DNA of 64,000 nt from Geosiphon pyriformis uo1 (taxonomy: Eukaryota; Fungi; Glomeromycota). Shown piece after piece: positions 13,120-50,595 of the stretch (position 1 is the first letter of the stretch; each line of letters begins with the position of its first letter). The DNA is taken from positions 62,001 through 126,000 of the forward strand of contig JAAOMT010000630.1 of NCBI GenBank assembly GCA_016748015.1. The letters are read 5' to 3'. Position numbers and translations under genes: made by a program. Below the pieces are notes generated by a model, which did not search any database, had not been told where the DNA came from, and saw only the letters and a program-made list of their open reading frames with translations.

Positions 13120-16100
13120 CTATACATTTATATGAACAGAAACCATATCACCTATACCAGAAAAGAACCGACAATATTTACGAAACCCAAAACTAACACC
13201 AAAAGCATCAGTAACACCTAATAACTTAACCACACTATCTGAAAGTAGCTTAGGGGGGCCTATCACTGGAAGGAGTAGAGAACCATTACGCGGAATTGAA
13301 CTATTTCCCTCCATAAGAGATCTGTGTTTGGCACAAACCAACCAAATCTCCTCCTAAAAAGTGAGACAAAATTTTCATACAAAGTCTATAACAGTTAGAG
13401 CTGCCACTTTGGGATCTTTAAAAACAGAAATTGACTCATGATATCAATTGTTAAAAACAAAATCTTTACAAAAAGCCGTGCTAATCACAACATCAGAAAC
13501 ACACATTGACAACAACTATGAGACACATAAGGAGGAATGAGATAAACCAGTGTGAGTTTTCCATGCAGACGCATGAACATTGACCAACCGAGCGTGGGCA
13601 GAAACATCAGATGGGCATGAAAACACATGGTCGGAGACCTCAACATCACCACAATAAAGACATATCATGTTGAGATAGCACTTATTATACAACCGTTTCC
13701 ATACAGCTACAGGAAGCTGATGATGTAGTGTCTTCATGAAATATGACCAACTGTCAACAGTACACTTACTAGTGAAACTAGCAGCCAAATGAGAATCCAG
13801 ATGTCACACCAAAGAAGACCTGAACCAGTCAATGTCTGAATGCAAGCTCTCCATCACAACCTGAGAGTTCGAACCCATCTCCCATCATGCACAATGAACA
13901 GATCGGAACATGTTACAGACAAAATGTCTAGAATTACCAGATACTGCAGTATCACCAGCTATTAAAAACTGCTCACTAATAGAAGGAGGTAGATGAAAGT
14001 TAGAAAAAGCAGCAGCCTTAGCTAAAGCATCAGCATGCTTGTTGCCTGAGACACCCAAATGGCCCTTAGTCTTAATCCAACTAACATCCAAGTTTTTGCA
14101 ACAAATGACATTGGTGATATGACGACACTCAATCCAACAACAATTCCTAAAATTAGGGCCAGCCAATAAAAACTCCAACCTGCAAGCATTAATAGCCGCC
14201 TGGCTGTCCAAGAACAAATCAACCAAACAAAAAGAAGGAACACACTCAAGAGCTAAAGCAATGGCCTGCAGCTCCACCAAAATAGAAGAAACCAAACCAG
14301 AAACCCCCACACCCAGACCTGAATCAATGTCCTCAAAGAAAACCACAGCACCAGCCAACATGTCAACTGTGCCCAAGTTACTCAGAGACCCATCAGTGTA
14401 TACAGAGAGGCAGGTGACATCCATACCCAACAGATCATGACAAACAACACCAAAACCAAGAGACTGACAGATGTTATAAGAACTATCAACACCATTATGA
14501 GTGGAACGACCAAAAGGAGAAGCTACACCACCAAGAAAATGAACAGAGAGATCAAACCAGGAGAAAACTGGGCCATGGGGGTCTAGTCTCTTTCAACGCT
14601 TGAAAGTCTTCCAATCAAAAACAATGCTATTCTGGTCACAAAGCTGTTCCATGAAAGCAATACCATAACGCCTAAGAGAGAAGACACATTTGAAGAAAAT
14701 CGTCTCACTAAGTACCAAAGACATAGAAGTACCACACCAAAGACAAAAAGCACTGGCCAGAGAGCCACCCAAAGACAAATCACACCCAGAAAAAATATGA
14801 ACCACATCTGCCAAAAAGTTGTTTGAAGAGCTGACTCTAACATGAACAGGAAACAACAAAGAGTGACGAGGACGCCAGCTGAGAATCTGGAGATCATGAG
14901 ACCTATGAGAAAACAAGTGACCCAAAACACCAACTGAATTCGCAAAAGCAATAACAGAAGCTAACTTGCTCTCAGCTTGAATCTGCTCAAAAGTTTTTAA
15001 ATTGTACAAAGAAGGATGATGAAATGCATCATTGGGAAAGTCCAGAGGCAGCCCAGATTTGAATTTCAGGCCCTTGCAAATCAAAGCATCCCATTTATTA
15101 CACACACTGAGAGGAATAAAACTAAACTGAGTTTTGTAGCTGACAATAAGAAAGAGAACTGAAGACACCAAATAAGCAAACTGTTTATCTGAAATAACCT
15201 TTCTTAGAATGAGATTAATGAAAAACCAAATGTCTAAATGCGCCTTAACCAAGCTAGGCTTTAAAAGACCATCAGAAGATAAAAAAATATCCAGATAATG
15301 ATAAGGTTCACCTCTTTTAGTGATGGAAATTGGCATACCACTGATAGTTAGATAAGGAACAGCAACTTGACAGTTGATAGGAATGGCCACAATCTTGTCA
15401 TTGTTTATCGAAATGTCATTCAAACAAAAAAACTCACTAGCAACATTGAGAATGTGTTGTGTAGCAGCTTGGCTGCTACTGACCCAGATAGTATCATCAA
15501 CAAAAGCACCAGCAGCCAGAAATGATGTCAGCCCAGCTTGAGATTCCACCTGGCCAGTCTTAGAAATGAAATGAGAAATCAACCTGTAAACACAAATGCT
15601 CTTCTGTCTCTTAACCTCACACAAAAACAAGTCATAAAATATGCACCAGAGAAGTGGCGAAAAAACTTCCCCCTGATCCAATCCATCGTGAACATGATAT
15701 CCATTAGTCAAACCAAAATCTGTCATCACTCTGTTAGCGTGACCATTATGAATGGCACCAAAAAATCTGATGAATTTGTCACACATTTTGATCCTAATCA
15801 AACTCCTCTTGAGATGTTTTCAACCAACAGAATCATAAGCTTTGCGCATATCCTGTAAAACCAGTCACAACTTTCGGTTCTTTTCCAAAGCATCTTTGAT
15901 TACTGAACCAATAGCAAAGATAGGCAATTGAGTAGACATACCTTTTAAGACAGAGAAATTGTTCTTACAGAGGACATCAAAAGTGCTACAAGCCAGGGAG
16001 ATCCGATCTGAAAGAATCTTGGAAAAGACCTTGCAAGCTGTCTCAATCAAAGCAATAGGGTGGGTATTTATAAGAAACCTCTCCCACTTGTAAGGTTTAG

Positions 16101-17808
16101 GGATCATTGAAACCCAGGCTTCTCTTCAAGATCCAGGTACTGACTCACAATCCAAACAGAAATTCAAGAGCACCAAAAACATATCTAAGACCGACTTGTC
16201 ACAGTGTTTCCAAAGTTCATTAGTAATACCAGAAAAACCAGCTGCTTTCTCATCAGACAAATTTGAAATAACATCAAACATCTCATTAAAACTGATTGAA
16301 TGCATCACATCAGAGAAGACATTATTGAAGACATGATTCTAAGGCCAAAACTGCCTTGCCCAATCACCAGAGATATTAGAAGTCACCACATGTTTCTTAG
16401 TCCAACCCTCCATGATTCCATCCATCTTAGATTTAACCAAATCAGGCTCCAAGACCAACTTCCCATCATCCACCAAATGATCCAACACCACTTTATGAAA
16501 AAGATGCTCCAAAACACTTCTAATAGTGTGACTCTTATCCACCTCAAAACTTTCCATTCTTCTCTTAATAGCCTGCCTTATATGAGATTTTCCAGCACGC
16601 TTAAATTCCAATAGCTTAGAAGAGTGGTAAGACTTTCTTGCCTTAGCCAGCCCAGAACAGATTGCATCAAAACTGGCACCAGAAAGAAACAGAGCTTTCA
16701 CTGATGAAGCACCCATAGAATCAAGCCTGTTCCAAGTATTCAACAATGAGGCAAAATCCCTGCCAAAAACCAACTAAGAAGCCTTCACCAGTTTAGACAC
16801 AAGTAGCTCAAGTCTATGAAACTGGGAAGATACCTTATTAAAAACACAATCAAAACCCTTAAACCATTTTTTCTTGAACATTTTACCAGCCAAAAGAATC
16901 ATAATCTTATGAACAATATCCCATATTGCATCCAGATCAGAAAACTGCTTAGCCGCAACATACTCATCCAAGAATATAACCGCATTAGCAGCCATAGCAT
17001 TCCTGAATTCTGACCACTTAATCTCATTGGCATCTTTGATATCATACTTCCAATGATCTTTATTAGCTTGTTTGCACAGTGAATTCAGCTGGACATTGAG
17101 CAGGCCACCCAGTCCCACAGAAACATAAACAGCCTTGTGATCAGTATCAAAATATTCCTCAATGCCATTCACACCACAATCCATCACTGCATCAGCCAAA
17201 TTAGAGGAAACAAACATGTAGTTGATTGTCTTAGTGATACCACAAAAATTGCACTAAGTAGGTGACTTTACAAAAGAGCTTCTCCCCAGAGAGTTAATCA
17301 AACCCAAATCAAAACATTTTTTAAAGCTGGCACATTTGTGCAAACCATTCTCATTAAAATTACCACCAAAAATAACAAAAGAAGACTTATTAACAGCTTT
17401 AGCAATGAGAAAGTTGATCTCACCAGTCTGAGAAAACTAAGCCACCAATGAAGCACCAGCATAGAGCCCCAAAATAGACATTGAAAGTTTATTTTTGAAA
17501 AGCAACTTAATGGATAGGAGCCGACCAGGCATCTCAGAAATTTTGCAGACATGCTTTGCTAAAAAAAAATTCACAATAATTAACACCTCAGCACCCAAAG
17601 AACCAGAATCCAAACCAGAAGCAAAAACTCAAACACCATCAAATTTGTCAGCTAACCATGGGCAAACTTTCCCTTTAAGCTTTGACTCCATGAAAATAGA
17701 AACCAAATTGTCCATATCCTTGTGCCAACGAATGACATCATCTTGCTTCACAGAATTGTTCAACCCATGAACATTACATGTAGCAAATTTCTATACCAGA
17801 CTATTCAT
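13120..17808 (-). pseudogene. LINE 1 ORF2: AP endonuclease, reverse transcriptase, RNase H, CCHC finger (~1560 codons, one frame, internal stops)
   Basis: APE: ATCNVHGLN, GGNFN, TINYMF, DTDHKAV. RT: PIALIET, DMRKAYDSV, GLDQGEVFSPLLW, AFVDDT. RNase H: VYTDGS, ELQAIALAL, DSQAA, KGHLGVSGNKHADALA. Finger: CLYCGDVEVSDHVFSC. Confidence 0.9.
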
Positions 17809-19604
17809 TAAGAAATAGGAAGAGAAAGAGCACCATCTGCCAAAACCAAACTGTCCAAGCATGCTGATAGGCTCATGACCGAAGCAGAGAGATCTTCCAA
17901 CATGTTTTCCAATTTCACAACCTCAGATGAGGCAGTTAAACCAAGAATGGCAGCAGTCTTGTCACTAGTGGCATCACCCAAACCCACTTCCATCACTATA
18001 TCCTCCCCTTGATTCTGTGATGGGGGGGTTACCGGCAGCTGACATCCAGGGCTAGACTGGGAAACTGCCAGCATGAATAAGTCCAACCTCTTAGCCAACT
18101 CACCAATTTGTCCTGTGAGGCTGACAAGACTGCTTTCAATATTCTTCAAACAGTCCTTCAATTCACCATTAACAGTCGGAAAAGGTTTACCATAAGATAT
18201 GGAACCAGATTGAGCTAAACCACCAAAAGACACTATTGGGAGTGGTCTACCAACCACGAAAGCCCAAGTTTTTCCACCAAAAGCCAAGGGATGAGAAATA
18301 GGAGCAGACTTTTTTTCATATATCTTTGCCAGACAGAACTGATCCTGAGCTGAAAAAGGAGCTCTCTTGCTCCTAGGACTTGAGGACACACCAGCAGTAT
18401 GACATGTGAGAGAAGTATGACTGGAAGTTTTGTAAATTGAGCACAGTACAGCGGTTAAATGAGACCATCGGAGACCAACACCTTTTATAACAGAAGTGTT
18501 CACCATCGCCTGAATAAGGCTACCCTCAGAATTGAAGCACACAGTAGCACAGCATGTTCAGACATAACTGACAGAACTGCATTCAATAACACATGTTTTC
18601 CCACCAATTGAGCCAATGAAGTCCCAAAGATCATGAGCATTAGTGCTCATGGGGAGGATATAAAGCAAAGCCCTAAACTCATCTCTGGCATCCCATGTTT
18701 TTTTGTCAACATCAGTCCAGGCCATACACACTGCATCTTTCCCAATAAGAATGGACCACTCAGCTGTCAAGAAATCAGCCTAAAATTGATCCTCTAATTC
18801 AATAATCGCCTTTTGCCATAGTTTTACCAACTGTATCTTGATCGACTTAATAACCCCAAATTCAGAAATGGCTGCATGCACTGCCTCAACGGAAGTTTCC
18901 ACAGGAATTTTTTTCAACACAATTGCCTGATTCATATGATTGTTGACGGAGTGCTTAAGATCGGTGTTTACCACAACACCACGATTATTTGCCAATTGAG
19001 CAGCTGCCATTATCACCTTTTCAAAAGTAAAAGATGCCCAAATGATTCCACCAAATTTTGAGGAGGTAAAGGCTCCCCCAAAACCATTTACACTTGAAAA
19101 GATTTTTCTGACAAAATTGACTTTTTTCTGAAATGATTTACCAGCCACTGCTACAAGATCAATATCTAAAATGAAGAATTTGTGAACAGGCACTTGAACA
19201 GACGGCTTGACTGGAAGAGGAGGTGAGAGAAGAAGAGAATCATCCAACACATTATCTTCTGCATCAACAGTATTATAGTCAATCACACCCAGTGGCTTCC
19301 CTAGCACTTTCTTGGTTTTTACATGCAAACCTTTTGGTGTCTGATCAGAATCCTCTCCCACAAAAGTACCATTATCATCATAGTCTATACTGGTTTTTTC
19401 AACCAAGCATTCTTCTTCCATGTTGATATTCTCAGATTCTGTAGTGTCATCAGTTTCAGAACCCCATGAACGAGCGCCAAGAGTTTTAGCAACAACCCCT
19501 TTATTATCAATACTCTCTTCCAACACACCACTCTTTCTTTTCTTCCTTGATGCAACAGCCTTGAAACCACTCTCAGAACCAGAAGCTTTAATGGTCTTCT
19601 TCAT
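17808..19604 (-). pseudogene. LINE 1 ORF1 (~598 codons, one frame, internal stops)
   Basis: ORF fragments starting at 19604, 18770 and 18542 are co-frame. They include an RRM-like region, a degenerate Zn knuckle (CSIYKTSSHTSLTC) and a C-terminal coiled-coil-like segment. Confidence 0.8.
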
Positions 19605-21422: not shown

Positions 21423-22410
21423 TGTTACTTGAATAGAGAAACCAATCTGAAGTTATGAAAAAACATCACCAAAATGTGACATAATACAGAATAGCACACA
21501 ATAATGTTGAATAATGTGTTATAACTTAGAATAGTGCAGAATAACACATTATAATATAGGATAACACAGAATAACATATAATAATACCAGATAACATATT
21601 ATAATATAGGATAATTAGTAATAACATAGAAAAACAAAGCAATAACAGAAATAACAAAGCAATAGTTAGCAATAATGAAACAATCAGAAACAATTCTGTA
21701 AAACCAAAAGAATATATAAAAGTGAGTAGTTGTAGAAGGTAGAAACAGTAGACAGATAGATACAAACCACTAGACAAGAATCAAATATTCTTACCCCTTC
21801 CATCATTTATTCTATTTCATCTTCATCTTCTAAAATAAATCAATTATTAAGAAATTATAATCACAAATTTATGTTCTCAAATTTTGTGAAATTTATGTGA
21901 ACTAACCATTGTTTCATACATTCATTCTAGAACAGATGCTCTTAGCATAACTGCTTTGAACTATTAACAATTTGGACCAATTGTTCTTGATTATAGTGAT
22001 TGACAATACTAATTTATCTTTTATTTTATTTTATTTTATTTTATTTTATTTTATTTTTTTCTCTTGTGAAGCAGCAACATAGTAAAATCAACTGTCTAGA
22101 AATAGACTTTGTGATAGCTTGGTAAAAGAGGGAAGCTTTTTCTAAGTTGTTAGATATTAATATTATCTTAATAGCTTACCAGAAAAGTAAAAAAACACTG
22201 TCAGACCCTAATGATTGTGCTTGTTAGCTCAAAGAAAAAAGCTCACTTTTATAAGAAGTTGCAATTAGTGAGAACCAAAACTCTGTGCCTTATAACCAAA
22301 GAACTTAACAGGTAAATTTACAACCAGTAAAATAAAATTTTTAGAGACTAATAATCAAGATTAAACAACTGAGATTATGCGAAACACACCTTACTAATAA
22401 TTGAAAGCAC
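21423..22410 (+). repeat. Element A 5' LTR (left part; remainder 32274-~32317)
   Basis: Starts TGTTAC, is colinear with 40412-41420 and contains a (TTTTA)n tract. Confidence 0.88.
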
Positions 22411-23394
22411 TGTTACTGGAGGTTTTTGGTCTCTTTTCTGTAATGTTGTTGATACTTATTTGCTGTGAATTCACATTTTCTGGATGTGGTTGAACCTCCA
22501 ATAACTGAATTTTTAACTTCAAATTATCTCCTATAATTTGAACTTGCTGGGCTTATGAGTGGAATGGCCAATTCCGTGCCAGTTGCTTTGTGTAGTTACG
22601 TTGTAGTAAACGTCAACTCTTTCCCAGAAATTGCTTGTCTGGAAGCTCACTAAAAATATGTAGTTACTTTGCTGTGAAAGTCAACTCTTCTACAGGAATC
22701 TTGTCTGTAGGTTACCCTAATGATTATGATAAGAAAATAAAAGAAAATAAAAGAAATGTAAAAGAAATAGAATTTTATCAAGAGAAACATTTTCTATTCA
22801 GGCATGGAGTCACTAACAGTTTACTGAAATTGGTAGCTAATCAATTTCAAAATATTAGTTGGGTTTTGGGGATTTTCCAAGTGCAATAATTAAAAAATTT
22901 GGTTTTTCAAATTATTTGATATTTATTTCTTTTTGTGTGTATAGGAATGGTTCTAAGTGATAAATCTAGAGTAAAATATTTTTTTCTCGAAGAAAGAAGC
23001 TCTTTTTTTATACAACTTGTCGTAACATTATTCTATGAACTTGAACTTTGCTATTTTCTACAATTTCGCTGAACTAAAGATACATTTCGGTGAACTACAA
23101 GTTATTTCTGCGAACTTATTAGATATTTTGATGAACTATCAATTATTTTGGCGAATTTCTATAAATTTCGGCAAACTTTTGAATATTACATAGTTTGGGG
23201 TATTGCATGATTGATCATTGCAATTAGGTTACATTTGTGTTGTGTACAATTTGGGTTATTAATTAAATGATAATTTCGGACATTTTTTGCTAATGTAATA
23301 AGTAATAATTTGAAATGATAATATATGCTAATTAATGATAGGAATTATAAGATAATTTCATGTTAAATGATATCTCTAATTTCGTCTGGTAACA
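22411..23394 (-). repeat. Element B 3' LTR
   Basis: Colinear with 31286-32269 and the same length. Differences in the part compared are transitions. Confidence 0.95.
23064..23178. repeat. About six imperfect 20-21 bp tandem units (core TTTCGGCGAACT) in the U3 part of the B LTR; also ~31939-32053
   Basis: tttcgctgaact / tttcggtgaact / tttctgcgaact / ttttgatgaact / ttttggcgaatt / tttcggcaaact at regular spacing. Confidence 0.75.
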
Positions 23395-24082
23395 TAACCT
23401 CCTCCTTAAGACTGAGCTCCGTTGAAGTCCAAGTACTGTCTGTTATTTCCAGATAATAATCCAAAATTATTGAAGAAATTTGGTCTGAAAATTGTTGAAA
23501 TTTCAGTTCTGTAAGCTTTCCAATGTATTGAATCTTCAAAGGTTGAAAAATTGGGTTTTGTAGTACGTTTTCACAGGTATGGAATAGGTCATAAAGTCTA
23601 AGAGCAGCTTTAAGCCTGTAGCGACTGTTTGTTGATCCAGCTGTTGTCTTGAATTCATTGTGGAGTTGTTTCTGAATAGCTTCTTTTGTGAGGTTTGCTG
23701 TTGTAAGTTCTAGTTTCTGTTCGTAGAGTGTTTTTCCAATGTGAAAATATCTATAGATTGGAAAATATTCAGTGTTTTTCTCATTGAGACACAGTTGAAG
23801 TTTTTGTTGAATTGTAGCATTTGGTGGAATACTAATCGGAGTGAGCATTAGGTTTTCTCTTAAAGCAAGCTTTAAAAGTTCTGGCAGGTGAATTCCAGTA
23901 TAACTTTTTGTGTTCTTTTTATACGGGTGATATTTTCGTGAATTTGGGGCTAAATTTGTAACTACTTCTGTTTGGGTATAATTAATGTGGTTTCTAGTAA
24001 CAGTAATGAATAATTCGGGTATTGTTTTTAAAGCTAACATTAGTTTTTGGAATAATTGTTGAATGTTTTAAGAAATAGTCAT
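23363..24082 (-). pseudogene. Element B ORF3, ~239 codons of unknown function, overlapping the PPT and 3' LTR
   Basis: ATG at 24082, one early TAA (probably CAA), then 225 aa open (24040-23363). Homologous remnants occur in A and D. Confidence 0.75.
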
Positions 24083-24198
24083 TATAAACAATTGAAAAAA
24101 AATAAAAATTATTTTTGGTGTATGGGTTTTTATGTTATTTTTGTTTTGTTTTTGTGAGATTGTTTCTAAATTATAAGAGAATAACTAGTAAAATTAAA

Positions 24199-25582
24199 TT
24201 AAGTGTTCAGGTTGGAAGGTTGTTCAATGACAACTATTGGTTCTAAGTTTCGGGGAATATCTTTAGGACTGACCAAAGGGAAATGTGTACCAATTTGTGG
24301 AATTAATGGTTCAAGATTGTTTCTGGAATGATAGTGTTTCAAACAATCTCCATGTACAACTTTTGCTAGGATTTTATCATCAAGTCTTAGCTTGTATGAT
24401 TTATTGTCTAGGACTTCATGGATAAAGAATGGTCCATCCCATTTATTTTCAAATTTTCCACTCCATTGTTTTTCAGCTTTAGTTCTGTGTAAAAGAACTT
24501 TGTTTCCAATTTTGAATTTATTAGTGACTGAAGGCAATTTGTCATCATGCTGTTCTTTTTGTTGAGCTTGGAAGTGTTCAATATGGGTGGCTGCTATTCG
24601 TCATTTTCCTTTCAATGTGCTAAGCAGAGTGTAGGCTCTTCGCTGAAGTATTTCTTGGAAATTGTTTTCATCAATCGGTTGTGCTGGGTATGTTTCCACT
24701 GTGAAACTGATTGGTAACGTTGCCATCCTTCCATAAGTTAAATCAAATGGTGTGTTTCATGGTATCTTGTTTTAATGTCCTATATGCTAGTAATACTGAT
24801 GGAATAAAGAGATCCCATTCTTGCTTAAAATTGGTTGAGACTTTGGTTAATGACTCACACAATGTTCTGTTAAAATGTTCCACAAGTCCGTTTGTTTGTG
24901 GATGGTAGGGCAAAGACAGAGGTCTTTTGACATTAAATTGTTCACAAATTTCTTGTATTAGGTTGTTCACAAAGTGTGTTCCCTGATCGGATAAAAGTTC
25001 AATTGGACATCCATATCTACAAATGATGTCTTCGTAGATGAAATTTGCTACTGATTTTGCATCTGCTCATTGAATGGCTCTGGCTTTAGGCCATTTAGTA
25101 AGATAGTCTACAGCTACTGTAATATAACAGTTTCCTTGAGTGGTGATAGATAGTGGTCTGACTAAATTAATACCAACTCTGTCAAAAGGCTGTCCAACTT
25201 TGATTGGATTTAAAGGTTCTATAGAGTAAGTTCCTTCTTTTTTTTGACAACTATCACAAGATTCGACATATTTGTGAATGTTTTTTCTCATTCGAGACCA
25301 AAAGTAGTATTTTAGTGTTCTTTGGGTGGTGCTATCTTTTCCAAAATGTGCTGATGAAGGATCCAAGTGCATGTTGTATAAAATGGTCTTTTTTTCTGGT
25401 TCTTGTATTAATCTAAGTGGTTTGGTTGGGTTTTTGAAATTTCAATAATAGATAATGTTGTTGTGTAGAAAATATTGTTTGGCTTGTTGTTGTAACTGAT
25501 GTTTTTTGTCTGGGAACCAATCTGTTGGGATTGTTAATGTCTCCAAATATTGTTTGAGATTGTTGTAGTTTTTGGAGTTCAT
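24199..25582 (-). pseudogene. Element B integrase (separate ORF, one small indel near 24750)
   Basis: MNSKNYNNLKQYL...HLDPSSAHFG...CDSCQ (HHCC), VDYLTKW, SDQGTHF, PYHPQTNGLVEHFN, WDGPF (GPY/F motif). No chromodomain. Confidence 0.9.
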
Positions 25583-25631
25583 TGTTTGTTGTTTTAATGC
25601 TGTTAATTCAAATGGGTGTTGGTTTTGTTTT

Positions 25632-28600
25632 CTAATTTTGCCTCATTCTTGAGAGACAATCAACATTGGTGTGGAGTTTTCCTGGTTTGTGGTGTACAAT
25701 GTATCAGTAATTAGCTAAAAATCCTGTCCATCGGGTTTGTTTTGGGTTCAGCTGGGTGTTTTTGTTTTGTAGCCATTTAAGTCCAATATTATCAGTAATA
25801 ATATCGAATTCTTTGGGTCTGAGGTAAAGATTGAAGTGATGTAGAGCCCAGATTACTGCTGTGGTTTCCAATTCTGTTGTGGGGTAGTTCTTTTCAGTTG
25901 GCTTTAATGTTCTACTAGCATAAGCAATTACTCGCTCATTTCCATTGTCATCTAACTGTGATAGGATGGCACCAAAGGCAGTATAAGAGGCGTCAGTTGC
26001 TAACTGGAATTGGTTGCTGAAATCTGAGTAGGCAAGGATTGGAGCTGTTGTGAGTTTTTCCTTAAATATCTCAAAGGCATTTTGGTGTTCTTTTGTCCAT
26101 TTGTATTCAACATTTTTAGTAGTGAGCTGGTTGAAGGGTTTTGCAATTTCTGAGAATCCTTTGATGAATTTTCAGTAATAGAATGCTAATCCAATAAATC
26201 CTCTTAATTCTGTGGTATTTTGTGGAGTCTTGAAGTTTTTGACAGTACTGATTTTTCTGGAGTCTGGTTTAATTTCATCTTTGCTAATAATGTGACCAAA
26301 AAAAGCTAAACTTGTTTTTCCAAAGTAGCATTTTTCAATGTTCAGTTTCAATTCTGCTTTCCATAATCGTTGAAAAACTTCTCGCAGGTGAATTAAATGT
26401 AGCTCGAAAGATGATGAATAAACATCAGTGTCATCAAGATAAATTACTACTGATTTCCAAAGGAGGCCTTTGTAAACAACATCCATGAGTCTTTGGAATG
26501 TTGCTGGTGCATTGCATAATCTGAAAGGCATTACATTGAACTCGTAATTTCCTCCTTGAGTGGTGAATGCTGTTTTGGGGCGGTCTTTGGAATCCATAGC
26601 AACTTGCCAGTATTCACTCTCTAAATCTAATGTTGAAAAGTATTTGGACTTTCCAAGGGCATCCAACATGTCATCAATTCGAGGAAGAGGGTAGGCATCC
26701 CCAATGGTGATACTGTTGAGTTGTTGGTAATCAACACAAAATTGTATCTTTCTATTTTTTTTTTTAACTAGAACCATAGGTGAGGCCCATGGGCTCATTA
26801 ATGGTTGAATAAGCCTATTGTTAAGCATCCATTGTACTTCTTTTCGGATAAATTGGTAACTTTCTGGAGCAACTCGATAGGCTTGTTGTCACCTGGGTTT
26901 GGCATCTCCTGTATAGATTTGGTGTTGAACCAAATCAGTTCTTCCTAAGTCATTGTTGTTTTCGGCGAAGATATCAGCAAATTCTGCAATTAGTTCTTTG
27001 AACTGGGTCTGTTGTTGTGGTTCAAGTTGTCCCATGTTGATTTGAGATAGTTTTTCCATGACAACATGGTAGTTTTCAGAGCTAGGGTTTGGGTTGATTT
27101 TTGGTAGTAAATGTCTAATAATTTTAGGAAAATCGGGGACTGTTTGGAGTAATTCTTGTTGAAATATATTACTGTGAATAACTCTAATTTCTAAATTATT
27201 TAATAAAATTATGGGGTAATTATTGGGATTGTAAAAAGTAACTTGGACTTTCTTTGTTCCTTCTGGAATATAAATGTTTGGGATTGAAATATTATGTTCC
27301 AAGCAGATTTGTTCATTGGACTCAAAAATTTGTTGTGTGGTTGTTGGCTTTGTGCAAATATAGATTTCCGGATGTTCTCCAAAGGGTGAGATAGTAATCG
27401 GTTGTGGAAGTTTGAGAATCTGGTGGGATTCATTCTGTGTATTAAGAGCTATATTAACTGGAACTGTGAATCGTCCAGTTGAACCAAAACCTTGGGTTCC
27501 TCTATTGCTTTTTCCTAATTGTTCTCTTTGATTGACTAGTTGTAAACCCGAAATGTTAATTAAAAGTAGGTAAATAGCTTGGGCAATTTTTTCAGCATGT
27601 TTGATCTTGAATGGTTTGTCAGTTTCATTTTGAAGCATCACTGTTATGTTTCCAGTATATTCAGCATCAATTATTCCTCCTCTGACATTGATTCCTTTGC
27701 TTGCCAGAGAGGACTAGGAGGCGATTTGAACCATTGCTCCTGGCAGAATTTTGAGTGCAATTTTGAGGTTGATTTTTGTAAGAGATTTGGGTTTGAGAAC
27801 AAGAGTATCCTTGCCTGGATATCTTAGGTCATATCCAGCATTAATTTCATGTGCTTTTTCGGGTTTTATTCTCTGTCCGTTGTTGTTGAAGTATTTAAGT
27901 TGTAAGGCAGGCTGATTTTCGATAAGATAGATGGGTGTTGTTTCAATTTCTTTCATTTCTTTAGGTTCTTCAAATTCAATTTCATTCTCATCATTTTTGC
28001 TGGGCAAGGGGATACTAAGAGCATAGCATTCAGGACACCACTGTTCATTGCAAGGCATAATGCATTCTTCACATAGCCTAATGTTCATTTGCTCTAATCA
28101 TTGAATTTGAGCTTCTTGGGTCGGGTAGGTGTAACTTGCAATTTGGTGATAGACTTCTACTTCATCTTCGTAATTGAATCCAGCTAATTCCATAGTGTAT
28201 TCAATGTATTCTGCTTTCTTCATTTGACAAACATCTTCTTTGGTAGCTCCATTAATTAATGCCATTGCTAAGTCGAAAATCATCTTGGCATCATAAGAGT
28301 AGTGATAAAGTTTGTTGAGAGCACTGTTGTATGCTGCATTAAAGGGTGTTCTTCTTTTTACTTTTTCTGAAATTGATAAAGCATATTGGCAGGTCTGATC
28401 GCAGACGCCTCCTCTTATTGCTACATCAATCCAATTGCATTCTTCTGGTAGCATATCTCCACAAGTTAAACAAGGAGTGTTGTCCCATTTTCTGCTTCTT
28501 TTTATTAGATGGCCCCATTGCTCTCTGTGGCAAGTCTTGCAGTAATAACAAGTATGATTCTCATATTCTTCTTCAGGTGAAATGCAGGCTCCCATTGACA

Positions 28601-31244
28601 ATAGTTTCTTGTGGCAGTCCTTACATTTAAGGGGAATATAGGGGCGTTGTTTCCTTGGTTCGGGTTTTGAGTAAAGTATATTCCATCCAGAGGTTTCGGG
28701 TTTAGTGTGTGGGGTAAAATGTTCTTGTTCTGTTTCATCAGCCCAGTTGGACGTTAATCCAAGAGCCATGAATGTTTCGATTATTGGTTTTTCTTCTTCT
28801 GGTTCAAATTCAAAAGCTGGGGCTTTTTCAGAGCATTTGTTGAATGTACCACAAATGGCAGGTATTCGGGCGTGTTGTCCTTGGTAGAAGATTGTTAACT
28901 CTTGTGTTTTCCAATTCAAATTAGCATTGGCTTTTTGAAGCCAATTATTTCCGACAAGAGCTTGGTACTGGGGTGTGTCCATTACAAGAACTTTGACTGG
29001 AATGGTGATTCCATCAAGAGTGAATAGAAAATTGTCAATTTCTCCTACTGGGGTCTTTTTCATGCCATCAGCAGTGACAATTACTGTTTGAGCTGGTCGG
29101 TCAACCTTTCTTTTTAACTGTTGCATTAATTGGTAGATAATAATGCTTCCAGCGGATCTACTGTCTAAGATCAAGTGAATTGGCTTTCCTTCTACTTCAG
29201 TTTCTGTGTACATTGCAGTGATGGCTTTTTGCTCATTAGCTGCTGCATTGCTAAGCAAGAATGGTGATTCATTTGCTTCAAATTCAAAAGGAAAGATATT
29301 AGAGAGATTGGCATTTTCAGCAATTCGGACTGGTGGAATAGTAGTGTGGTTATGAGAAGGGTTTCGTTGTTGTTGTACTGCAGCTCTACCTTCCGAGAGT
29401 GCAGTATGGTGAAAATCCTGTTCTTCTGACATTGTTAAATAACTGGATTGAGTGTGGTAATGGTTGGGTCTTGGTTGAGTGGTATTTTGGGGAACTAATT
29501 GGTTGTTCGAACTAATTCTACTGTTGTTTACTTGGTATTGGTTTTGTGGTGTGAATTGATTTTGTGTAATCAGTCTTCAAGCAGATACTTGATAATATTG
29601 TGTGGGTAGTTGTTAATATTGCTGTTGGATTAGTTGTGAGGCGGGCTGATAATAGTTATTTTGGTATTGGGGTCTTGGTGAATAGTAAGCTGGTGGTAAT
29701 GGTTGATAATAAGATTGTTGTGGTGGAGAGTAACGTTGATTACCTCTATTTTATTGGTCTTGTTGCAGCTTTCTGCAATCTCTTTTCCAGTAGCCAGAGA
29801 TTCCACAGTAATAGCAATTCTGGGGCTGGTTATTGGAAAGTGGTACAAAGTTATTTTGATTTCGTATTTGGGGTGGTTGATATCTTTGGGGTTGTTGTTG
29901 TTGTTGGTTGGTAAAATAGTTTTCGACCTTCTTTGTAAGTTGGTCAATTTTTTCCTCAGCTGCTGAGCTGGTTTCTCCAATTGTCAAATTTACAAGTTTT
30001 GTACAATTGACTTCTTCCATGGCCATTTCGTATCTTTTTGCATGCTGTATGGCAGAGTTTAAATCTTCTGGCGTGTGTGGGCGAACCTTTTTAATTAGTT
30101 TATCTTTTAGACCAGCAATAAATTGATCCAAGATTTGAGCATCGGAATAATAATTGTTTGTCTCAAGTTGGCGAATCCGTTTGAGAAGTTTGTTGAATTT
30201 CCCAATATAAGTCATAACGGATTCGGAGAGTTCTTGTTTGATATTTCGAAAACAATTGTAAAGAGTAATGAAGATATTATTGTCGGTAAACTATTCAAGG
30301 AAGGCTGCTTTGAAAGCATTCCAATCATTGAATGAGACAGCAAGGTTTTCAAACCATTCTCCTGCTGTTTCTTTAAAAAAATAGGGAATTGTTCTTAACA
30401 TTCTGGCAGTGTTCTATCCATTTGCATCTCCAGTTTTAGTAACTTGGTCGAGCCATTCTTGGGGACTGGTCTCAATATCTTCTCCATTGAATTCAGGGAT
30501 TTTTGCGATGTATGTTGTCATTTTGTCTTCTTCGTTTTCACTGTCTATTGATTCTTCTTTGGTTATTTCAGAGTTGTTTTCTTCATTTGCTGCTGTCTCA
30601 GAGTGTTCACTTTGATTTTCAGCTAGAAAATCAAGGAGATTGGAACTAGTTTGAAGGGGTTCTTGTTGTCTGGATTGACTTCTGAGTAATGTAAAATCTT
30701 CTGGTCTTGCAAATTGATTCAAGGGTGAATTAGGTGTTTGTGCTTGTACAAGTAAAGCTGAAAAAGGTGTGATAGTAAGTAGAAGTTTTGAGCTGGTTCT
30801 TTGTTCAGGTGTTTGTAAATGTTTGAATGATATTTTGGAAGTATTGGGTGTTGTGTGAACAGGCCGGTTATCTTTTTGTCTTTTGTTGCTACTGGTTTCA
30901 GGTTCAGATTCGAGTTCAAAAGCAAATTGTGCGTTTGTAGGATATCTTTCTTTGCAGAATCGAATGATATTATAATCAAGTTCCTCAAAATAAGTAGCAC
31001 AAGCTTCAGCACTAATGTTCTCTGATTCAGTGTTGGAATAGTGTAGTATGTTCTCAAGAAGATCTCTTTTAACTGTTGTAATGTTATAGTTCCCAAAGAG
31101 GTAGTCATTGATTCGATTTTCGATGTATTGAAAAAGTGTTTTCTTGAAAGCTATGATTCCATTGCGTATTTCAAATCGTTGTTTGCAGTGTGTATAAATT
31201 AATTGATAGTACTCTAAGGTTGTGATGTTTGAGGTAGTCACCAC
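25632..31244 (-). pseudogene. Element B Gag-Pol polyprotein, single frame of ~1870 codons with nonsense mutations
   Basis: Fragments starting at 31244, 30215, 29432, 28088, 27641 and 26828 are all co-frame. Motifs: capsid KIPEFNGED, CYYCGISGYWKRDC, LILDSRSAGS, dUTPase motifs, YPLPRIDD, IYLDDT, ATDASYT and NVDCLSRMRQN*. Confidence 0.92.
27475..27860 (-). other. dut: dUTPase domain within element B Pol (homologues: A ~35995-36380, D ~59115-59500, E ~51839-52019 partial)
   Basis: All five trimeric-dUTPase motifs in order: AGYDL, S*SS (RSS), GIIDAEYTG, KIAQ, RGTQGFGSTG. Confidence 0.92.
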
Positions 31245-31285
31245 TTTGAATTTGTTGCTGTGTTATTTCTGTGGAAAGCACCAAA

Positions 31286-32269
31286 TGTTACCAGAGGTTT
31301 TTGGTCTCTTTTCTGTAATATTGTTGATACTTATTTGCTGTGAATTCACATTTTCTGGATGTGGTTGAACCTTCAGTAACTGAATTTTTAACTTCAAATT
31401 ATCTCTTATAATTTGAACTTGCTGAGCTTATGAGTGGAATGGCTAATTCTGTGCCAGTTGCTTTGTGTAGTTACATTGTAGTAAATGTCAACTCTTTCCC
31501 AGGAATTGCTCATCTGGAAGCTCACTAAAAATGTGTAGTTACTTTGCTGTGAAAGTCAACTCTTCTACAGGAATCTCGTCTGTAGGTTACCTTAATGATT
31601 ATGATAAGAAAATAAAAGAAAATAAAAGAAATGTAAAAGAAATAGAATTTTATCAAGAGAAACGTTTTCTATCCAGGCCTGGAGTCACTAACAGTTTACT
31701 GAAATTGGTAGCTAATCAATTTCAAAATATTAGTTGGGTTTTGGGAATTTTTCAAGTGCAATAATTAAAGAATTTGGTTTTTCAAATTATTTGATATTTA
31801 TTTCTTTTTGTGTGTATAGGAATGGTTCTAAGTGATAAATCTAGAGTAAAATATTTTTTTCTCGAAGAGAGAAGCTCTTCTTTTATACAACTTGTCATAA
31901 CACTATTCTATGAACTTGAACTTTGCTATTTTCTACAATTTTGCTGAACTAAAGATACATTTCGGTGAACTACAAGTTATTTCTGTGAACTTATTAGATA
32001 TTTTGGTGAACTATCAATTATTTCGGTGAATTTCTATAAATTTTGGCAAACTTTTGAATGTTACATAGTTTGGGGTATTGCATGATTGATCATCGCAATT
32101 AGGTTACATTTGTGTTGTGTACAATTTGGATTATTAATTAAATAATAATTTCGGACATTTTTTGCTAATGTAATAAGTGATAATTTGAAATGATAATATA
32201 TGCTAATTAATGATAAGAATTATAAGATAGTTTTATGCTAAATGATATCTCTAATTTCATTTGGTAACA
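31286..32269 (-). repeat. Element B 5' LTR
   Basis: Followed on the minus strand by TT-TGGTGCTTTC (PBS). Confidence 0.95.
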
Positions 32270-32317
32270 GCACCAAACATTACTATTTTCTTACCCTACC
32301 AAGTTTACCTATAACAT

Positions 32318-32336
32318 TTGGTGCTTTCTGTAAGGT
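32318..32336 (+). promoter_or_regulatory. Primer-binding site of element A (consensus across A/C/D: TGGTGCTTTCTGTGAGG)
   Basis: TGG start 2 nt after the LTR end. Related sequences sit at the same position in B, C and D. Confidence 0.8.
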
Positions 32337-32377
32337 TATAAATCCACAGAGACAGAACACCCCAGAAATTCACAAAA

Positions 32378-35300
32378 GTGACAACTATTAAAACAGTAGG
32401 AAAAGACTACTCTCCATATAGAAAAGCATTATTTCAATACTTTTAAAAAGATCTAGGAATACCAGCAGAAACTGTTTATACAGAAAGTAATTTTTGTAAC
32501 TATATCAATGCAAAAATTGACTACTTATTAGACCATACAACCAATACAGGAAGACTTGAAGAACAAATCCATCAAAGCTTATTAGAGTACTCAACAGTCA
32601 TGACTACCTGAGCAATTACTGAAACTCTGCGCATAATTGATACAGATATTAAATATTACATGGCAAAATAATTCCCTCAAATACAACAACCAGTGGAATC
32701 TGACTCTGAGGAATATGAAAACAAATCTAACAACTTTACAACTGTCCAAGCCAAGTCCATGGTCAACAAAAAACCAAGATTCTTTTTCCCAACAACTCTA
32801 TCATATCATCAAACACTCCAAAGTAGAATTGTATTCAACTCATCTCCAGAAACCCAGTCGGAAACACTATGAACTCCTAAAAATCTACACTCCTGGGGTC
32901 AACACAATTGGACCAAATCATTAGGAAAATATGGATTATTGTTTGGAAATTTCATCCCAACAATTAATAAAACAGACAAAAATACATCAACATGAGAAAC
33001 ACTACCAACCCAACTCTTGACCAAATTATCAATTACTCTCTCTAAAAAAACAGCTATTCTCCAGCCCATTGAGATAATTAACAAAAGAAAACAACCAAAA
33101 TTAGCACCAGGAGAACACTCTAGCATGCAAACACCAAACTCCTCAGCATCAACCAATAAGACTCCATCTATTTACCAGATCATGGCTTACTGAGATATTG
33201 CCAAATTAAAAAAATTCTCTGGTGAAAAAGACAATGCATATACATAAATTGCAGAAGCCAAGAAAGCTATTACTGCCAACAATTAAGATGATAATAGGGC
33301 CATTCAAGCATTGTCATTTTTTTTGACTGAAATTGCAGACTCATGATATCAAAGCCTTACAGAAAAACCAACCAACTTTGCTGTCTTTAAACTTGTTTTT
33401 CTGCAATACTTTTGTGATCCTAATACTCTCATCAGATTACAAAATCAGTTTAGTATAATAAAACAAAAAGATCACGAAGCAGTAACCACTTATCTTGGAT
33501 GATTCAACCAAATCCTTCATTAAACCCAGGCCATTGAAAGGAACTACTACACTGTGGCACAAATCCTTAATCAATTTGTCAAAGGATTAAAGAGCAGCCT
33601 CCTCCGATCTGTAAGACTCTACCACCCAACAAACCTACAAGAAACAGTTACTTTTACTTATGCCTTTGAGTCAGCAGAACAAAAGGCTAACCATATTCAA
33701 GTTGTTAATCTGGCTATTAATGAAATATTCAATATTGACACAAAAATAACTCAATTAAGTAAAAAAATAACTCAATTAAGTAAAAAATTAACTCAAAAAA
33801 TTGAGGAATTTTTAGCTGATACTATAAGACTCTATCAGCCACCACAATAAAGAGATAGTAATAATAACAGATACCAATAACAACAGAATTGTCAGCAACA
33901 ACAACAATCTTGAAGATCCAATTTTCGCAATTATTACTATTGCCAAAAATCTGGACACATTGTCTAAAACTGCTATAAGAAAGTAATGGACCAAAATCAA
34001 GGAAATTAATATTAACAACTGAGATACTCTCAAAACATGGTATTCCAATACTTTGCACCTCAATATCAACTGCCTCAATACTCACAACAAATTCAGTATA
34101 CCTAGCAACCACCTCAGAACTATTACCAGTCATTACAGCCAATGGTTCAAACAGTATTCTAGTACCAAAACTCTGTTAATAATCAACCTAAACATTGTGT
34201 GATTGATTACAACCAAAGATAAAGAAACCCCAACAACAATCAGATGTCAACTAACAGTGTACCATTGCAATCTCTAAATTATAGTAATATCTCATCTTGA
34301 CCAGTACCAACTGGATATTCTAACCAAGTCTTATATTTTGGTTTCAATAAAAACCAGGATTTTTATAGCTTTACATCTTTAGAAAGAAAAAATGTAGGAG
34401 AGACTCCCAACCTTTTAAGAGAAAATTGAACCAACAATACTATCCCATCTACTATTATCACTGAAGATATTACCTTTGCTGTTATTTTTCCTTTCAACAT
34501 TGATGGTCTGAACACAAATAGCCTTTTTAGTGGAGCTGTCATAAATCAGGACAAACCAATCACAGCTCTGTACACTGATGCTAAAGTTGAAAACATAGAC
34601 ATTAAATTAATTCTCAATAGTGGATCAGCAAGCAGTATAATAATAAAACAACTTATGAATCAATTAGGTTACCAAATAGATCATGCTGCAACTGTCTGAA
34701 TAATTACTACAGATAACAATACCAAAATCCCAATCAGAGAAATCAATAATTTCCCCTTTGAAATCAATAGAATCCAAATTTCTACAAAAGTCCTGGTCAT
34801 GGAAGCCACACAATATTAAGCTCTTGTCAGAAATAACTGGCTGGCCAAAATCCATGCCACTTTTGACTAAAACACACAGAAATTACAAATTATCTTTAAT
34901 GGATGACATGCCTGAGTTCTAGCTACATGTAAACACTTTAAAGTCCAAAGCTTGAAGGAACCACTAATTGAATTCGAAGACACCACACCACTATCAACTA
35001 TAGAAATCTATCAAGTTTCATGAGTAGACAATTTCCGAACAGAGTTACCCTTACCGCCAACTTGGGAAGAAAAGGAAAAGGGAAAAACAGAAAAAAAACT
35101 ACAATCAGCATCTACAGACTATTCTGCCCCAAGTCAAGGAAGTCAATAGTATCAAATCTTGAAATTAATTTGTGTCGACTGTGGAAAAAAGTTATCTTCT
35201 ATAGGTGCATGTATTGGAGATGATGAGAAATGGCCAACTACCACCAAATATTACTGCAGACTTTGTATGTTGAAAAAATTTGGCAGACCAAAATAACAAG

Positions 35301-38201
35301 ACAAATGGGACAATATATCATGTTTTGCCTGTGATAAGATTCTGCCAGATGAAGAACTATGGAATAATGTTCTCAGCTGAGGAGAAATATGCAATGAAGC
35401 ATGTTAATACACAATCTTGATCAATAATTGAGTACAAAAAGGAACTCCAATTGACAACACTTGGAAACAAGTGTTATGATAATTAGACAGGTATTTCCAT
35501 GATGAACACAAGATTTGGAGAATGATGAGTGCAAAAGCAGAAGGCACTACAACCAGAAAATTACTGGAAATTAAAAACAACTTTTTATTCCTTCCAAAAC
35601 CCAAATATATCATAACTTTTGATGTTTTTGGCAACATTAAAGACAACCCAGAATATTTCTATAAGCACTATTAGAACCTGGCACTAACTAGAAAAAAGCA
35701 GAAACAAAAACTAGCTGACCTAAACATAAAACTGTGTGATCATTGTTTGATCTCTTGCCACTTTCAGTATTGCAATGAATGCAATATTATGTTCAACCTG
35801 CTTCCAAGAAAACTATACCCAATCACCAAACTACTGAAATCTAAGGTAGAAGAGGAATTAATTACCAAGAACATGTCATTTCAAGATCCAACTGAAGATA
35901 CCAAAACAGAACAGTATCTTGTGTATCCTAATCTATCCAAAGAATTAGAATTAAAATGGTACAGTAACAATGAGGAAAAAATCTGTTCAGAAAGAGCACA
36001 TAATATTGATGCTGGTTTCAATCTATAATACTCTGGACAATCAATTATAGTTATAGCCCTATATTTCTTTGTAAAAATAGATCTTAAGATAGCATTAAAA
36101 ATTCCTGTTAGTACAATGTTACAAATTGCTTTTCGATCTAGTCTAGCCAAAAAAGAAATTGATGTAAAGAGAGGAATCATCAATGCTGGTTACATGAGAA
36201 ACATCATAGTAATGCTACAGAACAATTCGAACAAATCTTACAAAATAGAATTACAAAAAAAAATTGTCCAAGCTATTTTTCTACTTTTAGTCAAAATGCT
36301 CTAATTGACCCCAGTAACAACCCAAGAAGAATTAGGTCTCACTGTCTGAGAAATCAACAAGTTTAGATCAAGTGGAAGAGGAAATGTACCAATCAACTTC
36401 ATGGAGGAAAATAATAATCAGATAGAACTTATCTACACCAATACAGTCATTTTCATCCCCTCTTATTGACAATACATCCTCAAGATAAATCAAAAGATCT
36501 AAAAATCAAGCCCTGTTATTTGAAGCCAATCCTGAAATCTGTTTCTTAGCCAATGTTGCTAACTTATACCTACTGGCCAAAGCCCATAAACACTTTAAAA
36601 TCTCTATCCACAACCCCACAAAAGATGTAATTGAAATTCCCAAAGGGACTCTTATTGGTTCTATCTCACTGGACATTTAACATCTCAAAAAACCCCAGCC
36701 TATCCCAGATTTTGCACAATTGTTCTTATTTTGCAACATCACTTCACAAGTATAGAATCAGCCAAAAAAAAGTTACTTGTTTACACCAGAAGAAATCAGT
36801 AAATTGAATCTCAGAAACTTAAGTACTCTGCAGCAAATGCAACTCAAGGTTCTCTTGAATCAATATGCCAATGTTTTTGCCAGTGAAAATGAATTCAGAT
36901 GCACTGACATCATGAAACATCAGATTGATATGGAAGACACTTGACCTATTAAACAATGAGCTTATTAAGTACCCCAATTTGGCAACAATTTTATCAAACA
37001 AGAAGTCCAACAAATGCTTGACAATGGCTTAATCAAGAAATTGTTAAGCTCTTGGTCCTTTCCAGTAGTTCTGGTCACCAAGAAAAATGGAAAGATATGA
37101 TTTTGCATAATTACTGAAAATTAAATAGTGTCATCTGAGAAGATAGTTACCTCACTTCTCTCATCCAAGAAATCCTGGACAATCTAAGAAAAAAGAAATG
37201 GTTCTCATTATTAGACTTAGCCAGTAAATATTAGCAAGTCGAAATAGATTCCAAAGATAAAAAAAATGGCATTTACCACTTGAGATGGAAACTTTGGGTT
37301 TAATGTAATGCTTTTCAGACTCTGCAATGCTTCTGCCACATTTTAATGCCTTATAGATGTCATGTACAAAAGAATTCTTTGGAAATCAGTCATAGTTTAC
37401 TTAGACAACACAAATGTATTCTCTGAAACATTTGATAATTATCTGCTTTATCTTCAATAAGTCTTTGAATACCTTTAAAATGTTGGATTAAAACTCAATT
37501 CCAAGAAATGTTTCTTTGGAAAAACTGAGTTAAAATTCCTAGAACACGTGATTGGCAAAGACAAAGTTAAACCCAACCTAAACAAAGTCCAAAAAGTTAA
37601 AAATTTTCCAGTTCCAATTAACCTTCAAGAGTTATAAGAATTTTTAGAATTGGCAAGATACCACTGCCAATTTGTCAAAGGATTTTTAACTATAGCAAAA
37701 TCTCTTCACCACTTGTTGTCCAAATATGTGCCATACCTATAGAAAAAAGACCAACAGAAAGCATTCAACTATCTTAAACAGCAATTGATTACATCCTCAA
37801 TCTTAATTTACCCAAATTTCATTAAACAGTTCATTGTCGCTACAGACACCTTGAAAAATGCTCTAGGAACAGTCTTATTACAAATAGAACCAGACAATAG
37901 AGAACATTTAATTGCCTATACCAATTACAGCACTAGCCCAGCAGAAAAAAATTACAGCACAACAAATCTGGAATGTCTTGCCATTTATTGGGCCATACAG
38001 ACATGGAGACATTACCTCAGCTTGCTCTTTGATCTATATACTAATCATAAAGAACTTGTTTGGTTACTTAACAATCCACAACTGGAAGAAAAATATGTAA
38101 GATAAAGTACTTATCTGCAACAATTTCCACTCAAAGTCTATTACAAGAAAGAATTCAAGAACACCAATGCTGACAGTTTGTCGAAGATGTTACAAACCTA
38201 A
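32378..38201 (+). pseudogene. Element A Gag-Pol polyprotein remnant (N-extension, capsid, CCHC, protease, Cys-rich module, dUTPase, RT, RNase H)
   Basis: Motifs AKLKKFSGEKD, LILNSGSASS, CVDCGKKL, AHNIDAGFNL, IINAGY, VYLDNTNVF and NTNADSLSKM*. Many stops and some indels. Confidence 0.85.
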
Positions 38202-44400: not shown

Positions 44401-44678
44401 TATATTTTTGGTTTTATAAAATTGGTTTTTAATTGTTTATTATTACTAACTATTGTTTGCTATTTTTGTTATTGCTTTGTTTTTTTATACTGTAATTAGT
44501 TATTTTATGTTACAGTTAGTTATTTTGTGCTATTTTATATTATTGTGTTATCTTGTATTTTAAATTATAATGTATTATTCTGTGTTATTTCATATTATTA
44601 TGTTTTTTTATGTTATTACATTTTCTAATTATGTTTTTTTAATATCTTTTGTATTTGTTTTTTTTTATTTAAGTAACA
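41421..44678 (-). mobile_element. LTR element C (A family, heavily eroded): 5' LTR, PBS and gag, truncated just before the protease
   Basis: LTR 43658-44678 is homologous to the A LTR. PBS remnant TGATACTTTCTGTGAAG. The gag remnant is colinear with 32378-34575 and ends at NKPITAIYT, abutting the 3' LTR of A. Confidence 0.8.
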
Positions 44679-50566: not shown

Positions 50567-50595
50567 TGTTGTTGTGGTGGGTGGGTTGGTGATTT

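Follow-up and report, generated by a model that had tools for sequence, protein, structure and literature searches.

Organisation of element B and its third open reading frame

The DNA considered here is a stretch of 64,000 nucleotides from the glomeromycotan fungus Geosiphon pyriformis uo1 (contig JAAOMT010000630.1, positions 62,001 to 126,000), hereafter the window, whose minus strand carries a complete but decayed Ty3/gypsy retrotransposon with long terminal repeats (LTRs), designated element B. The two LTRs of B are 984 bp each and 95.5% identical to one another, and the target duplication GCAC (4 bp) is present on both sides of the element. Between the integrase and the 3' LTR, i.e., in the env position, lies an open reading frame (ORF), namely ORF3, which is very probably a real, selected accessory gene of transposable elements (TEs). 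Read along the minus strand, the features of B are as follows:

31286 to 32269, minus strand: 5' LTR of B
24199 to 31262, minus strand: gag-pol of B, delimited by open frames and a domain scan, in at least eight open pieces
24083 to 24198, minus strand: spacer between integrase and ORF3 of B, 116 nt, AT-rich; the integrase stop codon is at 24201-24199
23363 to 24082, minus strand: ORF3 of B, 239 codons; ATG at 24082-24080, TAA at codon 5 (24070-24068), next ATG at 24040, stop codon at 23365-23363
23398 to 23407, minus strand: polypurine tract (PPT) AAGGAGGAGG, inside ORF3, encoding part of the conserved tail LS-L-(K/E)-E-E, with the same nucleotides in the metagenome contig L001 described below
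22411 to 23394, minus strand: 3' LTR of B, with TGTTAC...GTAACA ends and its start, TGTTACC, at 23394; its first 32 nt encode the end of ORF3 (10 codons plus the stop)

The initial annotation of this DNA had described a 239-codon ORF in the env position running through the PPT and 32 nt into the LTR. Both the coordinates and the overlap hold, the stop codon of ORF3 being situated 32 nt inside the 3' LTR, but an in-frame TAA had been missed at codon 5, where intact relatives have MTIPQ. As such, the stop-to-stop frame in B amounts to 234 codons (24067-23366) and translation from the first ATG past the stop would give 225 aa. ORF3 of B is 92% identical to intact 239-aa Geosiphon proteins; its frame differs from that of the integrase, and an A occupies position -3 of its ATG in both B and L001.

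Upstream, the gag-pol region comprises, in order, a long N-terminal ORF, a capsid-like domain with a zinc knuckle, the protease, a dUTPase, the reverse transcriptase (RT), the RNase H, and the integrase, with stops and frame breaks splitting it into at least eight open pieces. With a stop at codon 5 of ORF3 and a broken pol, the copy of B present in the window is dead. The dUTPase (PF00692, 57 bits in B) is located between protease and RT in all related gypsy elements of the window, namely at 26889-28097 in B, 36137-36397 in A, and 51638-52015 plus 58545-59315 in the D/E region, so that the clade bearing ORF3 is also a dUTPase-bearing one.

ORF3 remnants in two other families of the window

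Two further elements of the window, A and D, carry decayed versions of ORF3. When ORF3 of B was compared with the window by tblastn, only ORF3 itself was retrieved and neither A nor D was found at E<10. A profile built from nine sequences (six from Geosiphon and three metagenome proteins) matched A at 40038-40364 on the plus strand (30.6 bits, i-E 9e-11, profile positions 106-217) and D at 47743-47141 on the minus strand (28.4 bits, i-E 4e-10, profile positions 2-226), against maxima of 1.4 bits in reversed frames and 4.8 bits in 10 local shuffles. The remnants are laid out as follows:

39665 to 40425, plus strand: decayed ORF3 of A; main match at 40038-40364; tail KLNSKKRGIILPE in another frame, entering the LTR of A (from about 40414)
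47065 to 47743, minus strand: decayed ORF3 of D; match at 47743-47141 over nearly the whole profile, with several stops; tail STELNIKEERIML frameshifted and entering the LTR of D

Homologous remnants had initially been placed at about 40185-40310 in A and 47220-47480 in D. Their existence is borne out by the profile matches, and the three peptide strings from B, A, and D on which the comparison was founded were all located in translations of the window, but the true extents are wider and include stops and a frameshift. At the N-terminal side of A, the piece at 39665-39781 is weak (-5.1 bits) and not significant alone. Each remnant contains stops and is placed after the integrase and before the 3' LTR of the element that carries it. 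The pol of A is 40-58% identical to that of B and the pol of D 46-56%, with a dUTPase in both; as judged from these sequences, A and D are families distinct from B. The proposed conservation of ORF3 across divergent families is borne out, with scores of 28-31 bits in A and D vs. at most 4.8 bits in the controls.

Relatives of ORF3 and their linkage to transposable elements

A search of 5.8 billion proteins gave 209 matches at E<=0.01. The 120 of them that are listed all correspond to "hypothetical proteins" of Geosiphon pyriformis, at 63-92% identity, in keeping with the likeness to uncharacterised Glomeromycota proteins that the initial annotation had suggested. Of these 120, 78 are close to complete (209-245 aa) and separate into two subfamilies, one with 47 and the other with 31 members, the least similar pairs sharing 55% identity. 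When 1.84 billion cluster representatives were searched exhaustively with phmmer, 32 matches were obtained at E<=0.001, mostly Geosiphon proteins or fragments, together with two intact metagenome proteins, i.e., P0143 (230 aa, 33% identity) and P0144 (234 aa, 29% identity). Two more members, P0149 and P0162, bring the metagenome relatives to four intact proteins with 29-37% identity to ORF3. A spider titin (E 1.7e-4, phmmer) was dismissed as a chance match aligned through its Ig repeats. With the titin set aside, no relative outside a TE setting was found among the 1.84 billion representatives or in word-indexed protein searches; a second profile search was dominated by the Geosiphon family and brought no new relatives, and a scan of viral contigs for ORF3 gave none.

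Scanning metagenomes for ORF3 yielded one locus only, on contig L001, from which P0143 originates. The order there is RNase H, integrase, a 316-nt spacer, and ORF3, with the end of ORF3 lying 32 nt past the TGTTACC that starts the LTR. Alignment of L001 3090-3135 with window 23420-23380 (minus strand) shows near-identity of the nucleotides over the PPT and ~16 nt at the start of the LTR, for ORF3 proteins that are only 32% identical. TE linkage of the homologues, which had been put forward as a point to check, is therefore seen in four of the four visible DNA contexts, namely B, A, D, and L001. Additionally, chimeric Geosiphon gene models join ORF3 pieces to pieces of integrase, dUTPase, or gag (P0043, P0118, P0139, P0147, and P0134). 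Across the lineages, frames of 230-239 codons stay open and align almost without gaps at ~30% identity in AT-rich DNA, which is hard to explain without coding constraint.

Selection and rate of evolution

Selection was assessed on Logan contigs of runs X1 and X2 carrying the element, which are short and come from one sample, each change being scored singly. In X1, 15,246 contigs matched 23200-25500 at >=80% identity and 3,793 matched the 720-nt ORF3 alone; run X3 had no contigs on 23200-25500. In X2, from the same sample, only 10 contigs fell on this abundant element, covering 23402-23683, 24118-24160, and 24408-24518, i.e., ORF3 and integrase pieces.

A paralogous contig of X2 differs from the window at 47 places over 23402-23683, of which 37 are listed. 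These 37 are distributed 9/3/25 over the first, second, and third codon positions (binomial p 2e-5 for the third-position excess) and 25 are synonymous, knowing that a random change in ORF3 is expected to be synonymous in 21% of cases, or 35% if transitions only are considered. In X1, 32 sites of ORF3 differ from the window in >=30% of the depth. At the 22 sites with an intermediate share (30-85%), the split is 4/4/14, with 14 synonymous changes (p=0.0035); at the 10 sites where >=85% of the depth disagrees with the window copy, it is 2/5/3, with three synonymous changes, a distribution that decay after insertion is expected to give. Indels in ORF3 at >=30% share were absent from the X1 contigs. 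The excess of third-position and synonymous changes speaks for the purifying selection on ORF3 that was to be looked for, and our reading is that the ORF3 lineage would have been under such selection while active, the window copy having probably decayed neutrally since its insertion.

Between B and L001, identity reaches 57% for the RNase H, 59% and 51% for the integrase, and 32% for ORF3; as judged from these values, ORF3 evolves faster than pol. Within ORF3, the fastest part is a disordered linker, with 37% identity between subfamilies vs. 60-79% elsewhere, and the segment best conserved between lineages is the tail LSLEEE(I/V)MLPDEI (57-79% identity, vs. 16-54% for the rest). Since this tail is read from the PPT and LTR terminus, where B and L001 hardly differ in nucleotide sequence, its conservation is at least partly a matter of constraint on cis elements.

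The predicted protein

The protein had been proposed to be soluble, largely helical, and non-env, devoid of signal peptide and transmembrane segment, with a basic patch RKYHPYKK. The patch is indeed seen in ORF3 of B and the remainder of this portrait agrees with hydropathy and with two AlphaFold2 models. No membrane segment was found in any of four lineage representatives (P0001, P0065, P0143, and P0144), where the maximal 19-residue Kyte-Doolittle mean is 1.01-1.29. The models, one of a Geosiphon member (model 1) and the other of P0144 (model 2), have mean pLDDT of 56 and 60, respectively, and display the same architecture, in which an N-terminal helix and beta-hairpin are followed by a disordered linker, then by a short amphipathic helix and the four-helix core, and finally by more helices and a disordered acidic tail. 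In model 2, the block-mean pLDDT of the core is 74-94. Conserved in all lineages are the invariant Tyr of P-Y-x-[RK]-K in the basic linker, as well as Y-x-Y-F-x-I-G, G-x-T-N, and R-L-Y-x-x-F-x-x-C-E-N. For helix 66-75 a canonical export signal was considered, as was a PY-type nuclear localisation signal (PY-NLS), but both were dropped, the spacing not being conserved across lineages.

No Pfam family or known fold fits the ORF3 protein. Searches of Pfam, NCBIfam, and PHROGs gave sub-threshold matches only (DUF1016_N, FtsQ, and unnamed phrogs). DUF1016_N (PF17761) was rejected with 14.8 bits for the window protein vs. a gathering cut-off of 32.8, six of 29 members matching at E<=1 (best E 0.0039), a probability of 0.2% in hhalign of the family alignment vs. 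the N-terminus of Escherichia coli YhcG (a single-sequence template), and ESM Atlas rows at only 0.83-0.85. FtsQ (NF008043) fared no better, with 19.5 bits vs. a cut-off of 366 and no match for P0143 or P0144; the corresponding PDB profile match (2vh1 and others, E 0.0013) was judged to be chance. The matched stretch is modelled all-helical, against the alpha/beta fold of FtsQ.

Regarding structure, the best Foldseek E-values were 0.41 against the PDB and 0.063 against BFVD, and the structure-alignment search with model 1 peaked at Z 4.4. With model 2, SMC/Rad50 heads were retrieved at Z 7.2 (rmsd 2.5 over 64 residues), below the noise guide of 8 and through the N- plus C-terminal module, i.e., low-confidence parts only; such heads are absent from the structure list of model 1, and no Walker motif family appeared in the Pfam scans. 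For the core of model 2, the neighbours were helical bundles of small size, many of them DNA-binding, and the capsid protein of a filamentous virus, all with Z <=5.3, under the same guide. In the ESM Atlas, P0001 had no match at >=0.9, and the closterovirus coat-protein cluster suggested for P0144 (0.91) was discarded, with only 138 shared features and a flag as probably wrong.

Proposed role and alternative explanations

On balance, ORF3 is likely to be an accessory gene of the dUTPase-bearing Ty3/gypsy clade that serves the replication of its own element by regulation or RNA handling in the nucleus. Since it is a 3'-proximal ORF in a eukaryote and begins with an ATG of its own, it would have to be expressed from a subgenomic mRNA, which may be spliced or internally started. 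LTR-element ORF3s are typically expressed from spliced messages, according to an account of rotifer elements (PMC5408684). Two loose ends of X2 contigs near ORF3 had no match in the window and so gave no sign of a splice to a leader. The protein would then act in trans on RNA or complementary DNA (cDNA) complexes of the element, most likely in the nucleus, in the manner of Rev or of CERV, encoded by the element Cer1 of Caenorhabditis elegans. An element that splices would still have to export its unspliced genomic RNA, as CERV does for Cer1, and it is this need, together with the CERV precedent and the basic motif, that makes a nuclear RNA-handling or regulatory role the preferred one. Among the specific roles, a CERV/Rev-like nuclear RNA function comes as a tentative first choice by analogy, with odds well below even.

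Several points weigh against this assignment. No RNA- or DNA-binding family or fold was recognised in domain, profile, or structure searches, and the whole-protein pI of 5.4-8.9 is not uniformly basic. Of the jobs put forward by the initial annotation (transactivator, RNA-export factor, or anti-silencing factor), none is backed by a recognised family or fold. The basic motif fits the classical K-[KR]-x-[KR] in some lineages only, and the Leu-rich helix 66-75 lacks a conserved canonical export-signal spacing in the metagenome relatives. The selection test relies on short Logan contigs of one sample, on 37 of the 47 X2 differences, and on same-codon changes scored singly, while the visible TE-linked contexts number four vs. 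about 200 annotated Geosiphon proteins.

A protein of counter-defence, blunting host RNA interference or chromatin silencing without any direct role in replication, is an unlikely alternative that would draw on the divergence of ORF3 (32% vs. 51-59% for pol between B and L001) and on its fast linker (37% vs. 60-79%), both of which suit host-interacting proteins, as well as on the very high copy number (the 15,246 contigs at >=80% identity on 2.3 kb); fast evolution is, however, also explained by weaker constraint alone, and the Pfam scans recognised no domain that would tie ORF3 to silencing. Just as doubtful is the idea of a Vpr-like protein, structural or chaperone in nature, that would be packaged with the particle or the pre-integration complex, e.g., as a nuclear-import adaptor in a coenocytic fungus. 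The small helical-bundle core and the conserved P-Y plus basic motif in the disordered linker would agree with it, as would the weak neighbours of the core in both models, which are small DNA-binding bundles (CHD1 C-terminal domain, Orc6, Stl repressor, and RecX, at Z 3.7-5.1), but all those Z scores are under the noise level for helical models, and most fungal LTR elements manage without a Vpr-like packaged factor.

That ORF3 is a captured host gene, or belongs to a host family merely found beside TEs and without role for the element, appears very improbable; all named matches are annotated as ordinary host hypothetical proteins, but no relative outside a TE setting came up in the 1.84 billion representatives or the word-indexed searches, the same position and 32-nt LTR overlap recur in elements whose pol is only 51-59% identical, and the chimeric models P0043, P0118, P0139, P0147, and P0134 tie it to integrase, dUTPase, or gag. 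There is scarcely more than a slight chance that a degenerate env or env-like gene is involved, which the sense orientation and location between pol and 3' LTR might have suggested, since no hydrophobic segment exists in four of four lineage representatives (maximal 19-residue hydropathy <=1.3), no env family appeared in the Pfam scans, and the length is constant (230-239 aa) across lineages at ~30% identity, unlike a decaying remnant. Least credible of all is the absence of any gene, with a frame open by chance and conservation due to cis elements only (PPT and LTR end); the best conserved part is the dual-coded tail and the window copy has its stop at codon 5, but the excess of synonymous and third-position changes extends throughout the ORF body, lineages ~30% identical keep intact frames of 230-239 codons in AT-rich DNA, and conserved hydrophobic and Gly/Asn positions lie within the confidently folded core.

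Comparison with known systems

The proteins encoded by ORF3 make up a new, unnamed family. ORF3 itself is of a known kind, the sense additional ORFs or aORF-3S, characterised by the same position and orientation, presence in most copies of a family, and lack of homologues outside TEs (PMC7264820). In B, L001, A, and D, ORF3 is found downstream of pol and ahead of the 3' LTR, in the orientation of gag-pol. It occurs in most copies and families, as reflected by 209 protein matches, 3,793 contigs, three families of the window, and metagenome relatives, and in protein searches it has no cellular homologue outside TEs, the relatives being of the Geosiphon TE type plus four metagenome proteins. Most of the cases described in plants and insects are env-like and have transmembrane segments, whereas the ORF3 of Geosiphon is soluble, helical, and fungal, with its last 10 codons in the LTR (PMC7264820). 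Gypsy-like elements of bdelloid rotifers resemble B in having a dUTPase in pol and a family-specific ORF3, some of them non-env; the rotifer ORF3s correspond to env, GDSL esterase, DEDDy exonuclease, coiled-coil, or transmembrane proteins, none of which was found in the Geosiphon ORF3 by Pfam scans (PMC5408684).

CERV is lineage-specific, translated from a spliced mRNA, endowed with candidate nuclear localisation and nuclear export signals, and required for the export of genomic RNA (PMC10309623). Compared by description only, CERV and ORF3 are both non-env accessories of Ty3/gypsy elements, restricted to their lineage and evolving fast, with candidate nuclear-targeting motifs and flexible linkers. 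CERV differs in size and build, with 517 aa encoded by five exons partly sharing the gag frame and a G-protein-like domain, while ORF3 has ~235 aa in one frame after the integrase and no such domain (PMC10309623). In fungi, brtn of Boty/BcGypsy1 from Botrytis is likewise an additional ORF of a Ty3/gypsy element between pol and 3' LTR, here too by description only (10.1101/2021.04.13.439636; PMC7264820), although the Boty ORF is antisense, vs. sense for the ORF3 of Geosiphon (PMC7264820). A literature search found no paper linking Glomeromycota, LTR retrotransposons, and ORF3 and none describing this protein family, general TE surveys being all that came up.

In primate lentiviruses, the accessory gene nef is a 3'-terminal ORF and likewise overlaps the polypurine tract before entering the U3 of the 3' LTR. 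The likeness of ORF3 to nef is limited to this arrangement; the two are unrelated in sequence and fold, belong to different hosts and classes of element, and no Nef family was met in the Pfam scans. More generally, accessory genes set "complex" retroviruses apart from simple retroelements. These glomeromycotan Ty3/gypsy elements might be "complex" retroelements, with ORF3, whose frame interlocks with the PPT and LTR end, as a shuttling fungal counterpart of Rev/CERV that would be translated from a subgenomic mRNA and let unspliced genomic RNA leave the nucleus, in a module maybe widespread among dUTPase-bearing gypsy elements of early-diverging fungi; this broader view is speculative and less likely to be right than wrong by a wide gap.

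Almost none of the accessory genes of LTR retrotransposons is characterised, CERV of Cer1 being, in the literature consulted, the one case with a demonstrated job (PMC10309623). The repeat family that carries ORF3 ranks among the most abundant ones in this early-diverging, mycorrhiza-related fungus, where the ORF3 proteins are annotated only as hundreds of "hypothetical proteins." Naming them would clean the gene counts of Geosiphon, a species with unusually many genes containing TE insertions in exons (PMC11952901). ORF3 would also be a tractable candidate for the control of RNA export, nuclear entry, or host silencing by LTR elements in coenocytic fungi, and its tail, shared with the PPT and the LTR terminus, provides a case of dual coding.

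Other features of element B and of the window

Two further stretches of B stand out on the minus strand. In the interval between protease and dUTPase, 28000-28631 is Cys-rich with many CxxC pairs, for which the only Pfam match is Cytochrome_C7, at 0.025; this part of pol may be a zinc-binding insert that has escaped recognition. An open frame of 282 codons (30417-31262), acidic and Ser-rich and without match in the Pfam scan, follows immediately on the 5' LTR with its primer-binding site and precedes the capsid-like domain; it may represent either a long N-terminal extension of Gag or a separate ORF.

Element B is itself nested in the LTR of an A-type element, whose parts flank it at 21425-22410 and 32270-32584. 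These flanks are 72-84% identical to the 3' LTR of A (40414-41377) and to an inverted A-like LTR (43389-44563). An inverted and truncated A-like 5' part is located at about 41966-44563. Farther along, 50140-57571 contains seven runs of exactly 20 N flanked by duplicated blocks 99-100% identical, which looks like the scaffolding of collapsed repeat copies; element D is broken off at the first gap (50355), with a different copy beyond.

On the other side of B, a decayed retroelement of non-LTR type occupies 14593-19604 on the minus strand, with a 397-aa ORF weakly matching RVT_1 (26.7 bits vs. a cut-off of 29.6) and adjoining ORFs without family. Host genes are present at the left end of the window, namely Hid1/dymeclin-like exons at 5384-8033 and a KH-domain protein at 8785-10283, both on the plus strand, the TE cluster starting from about 10300.

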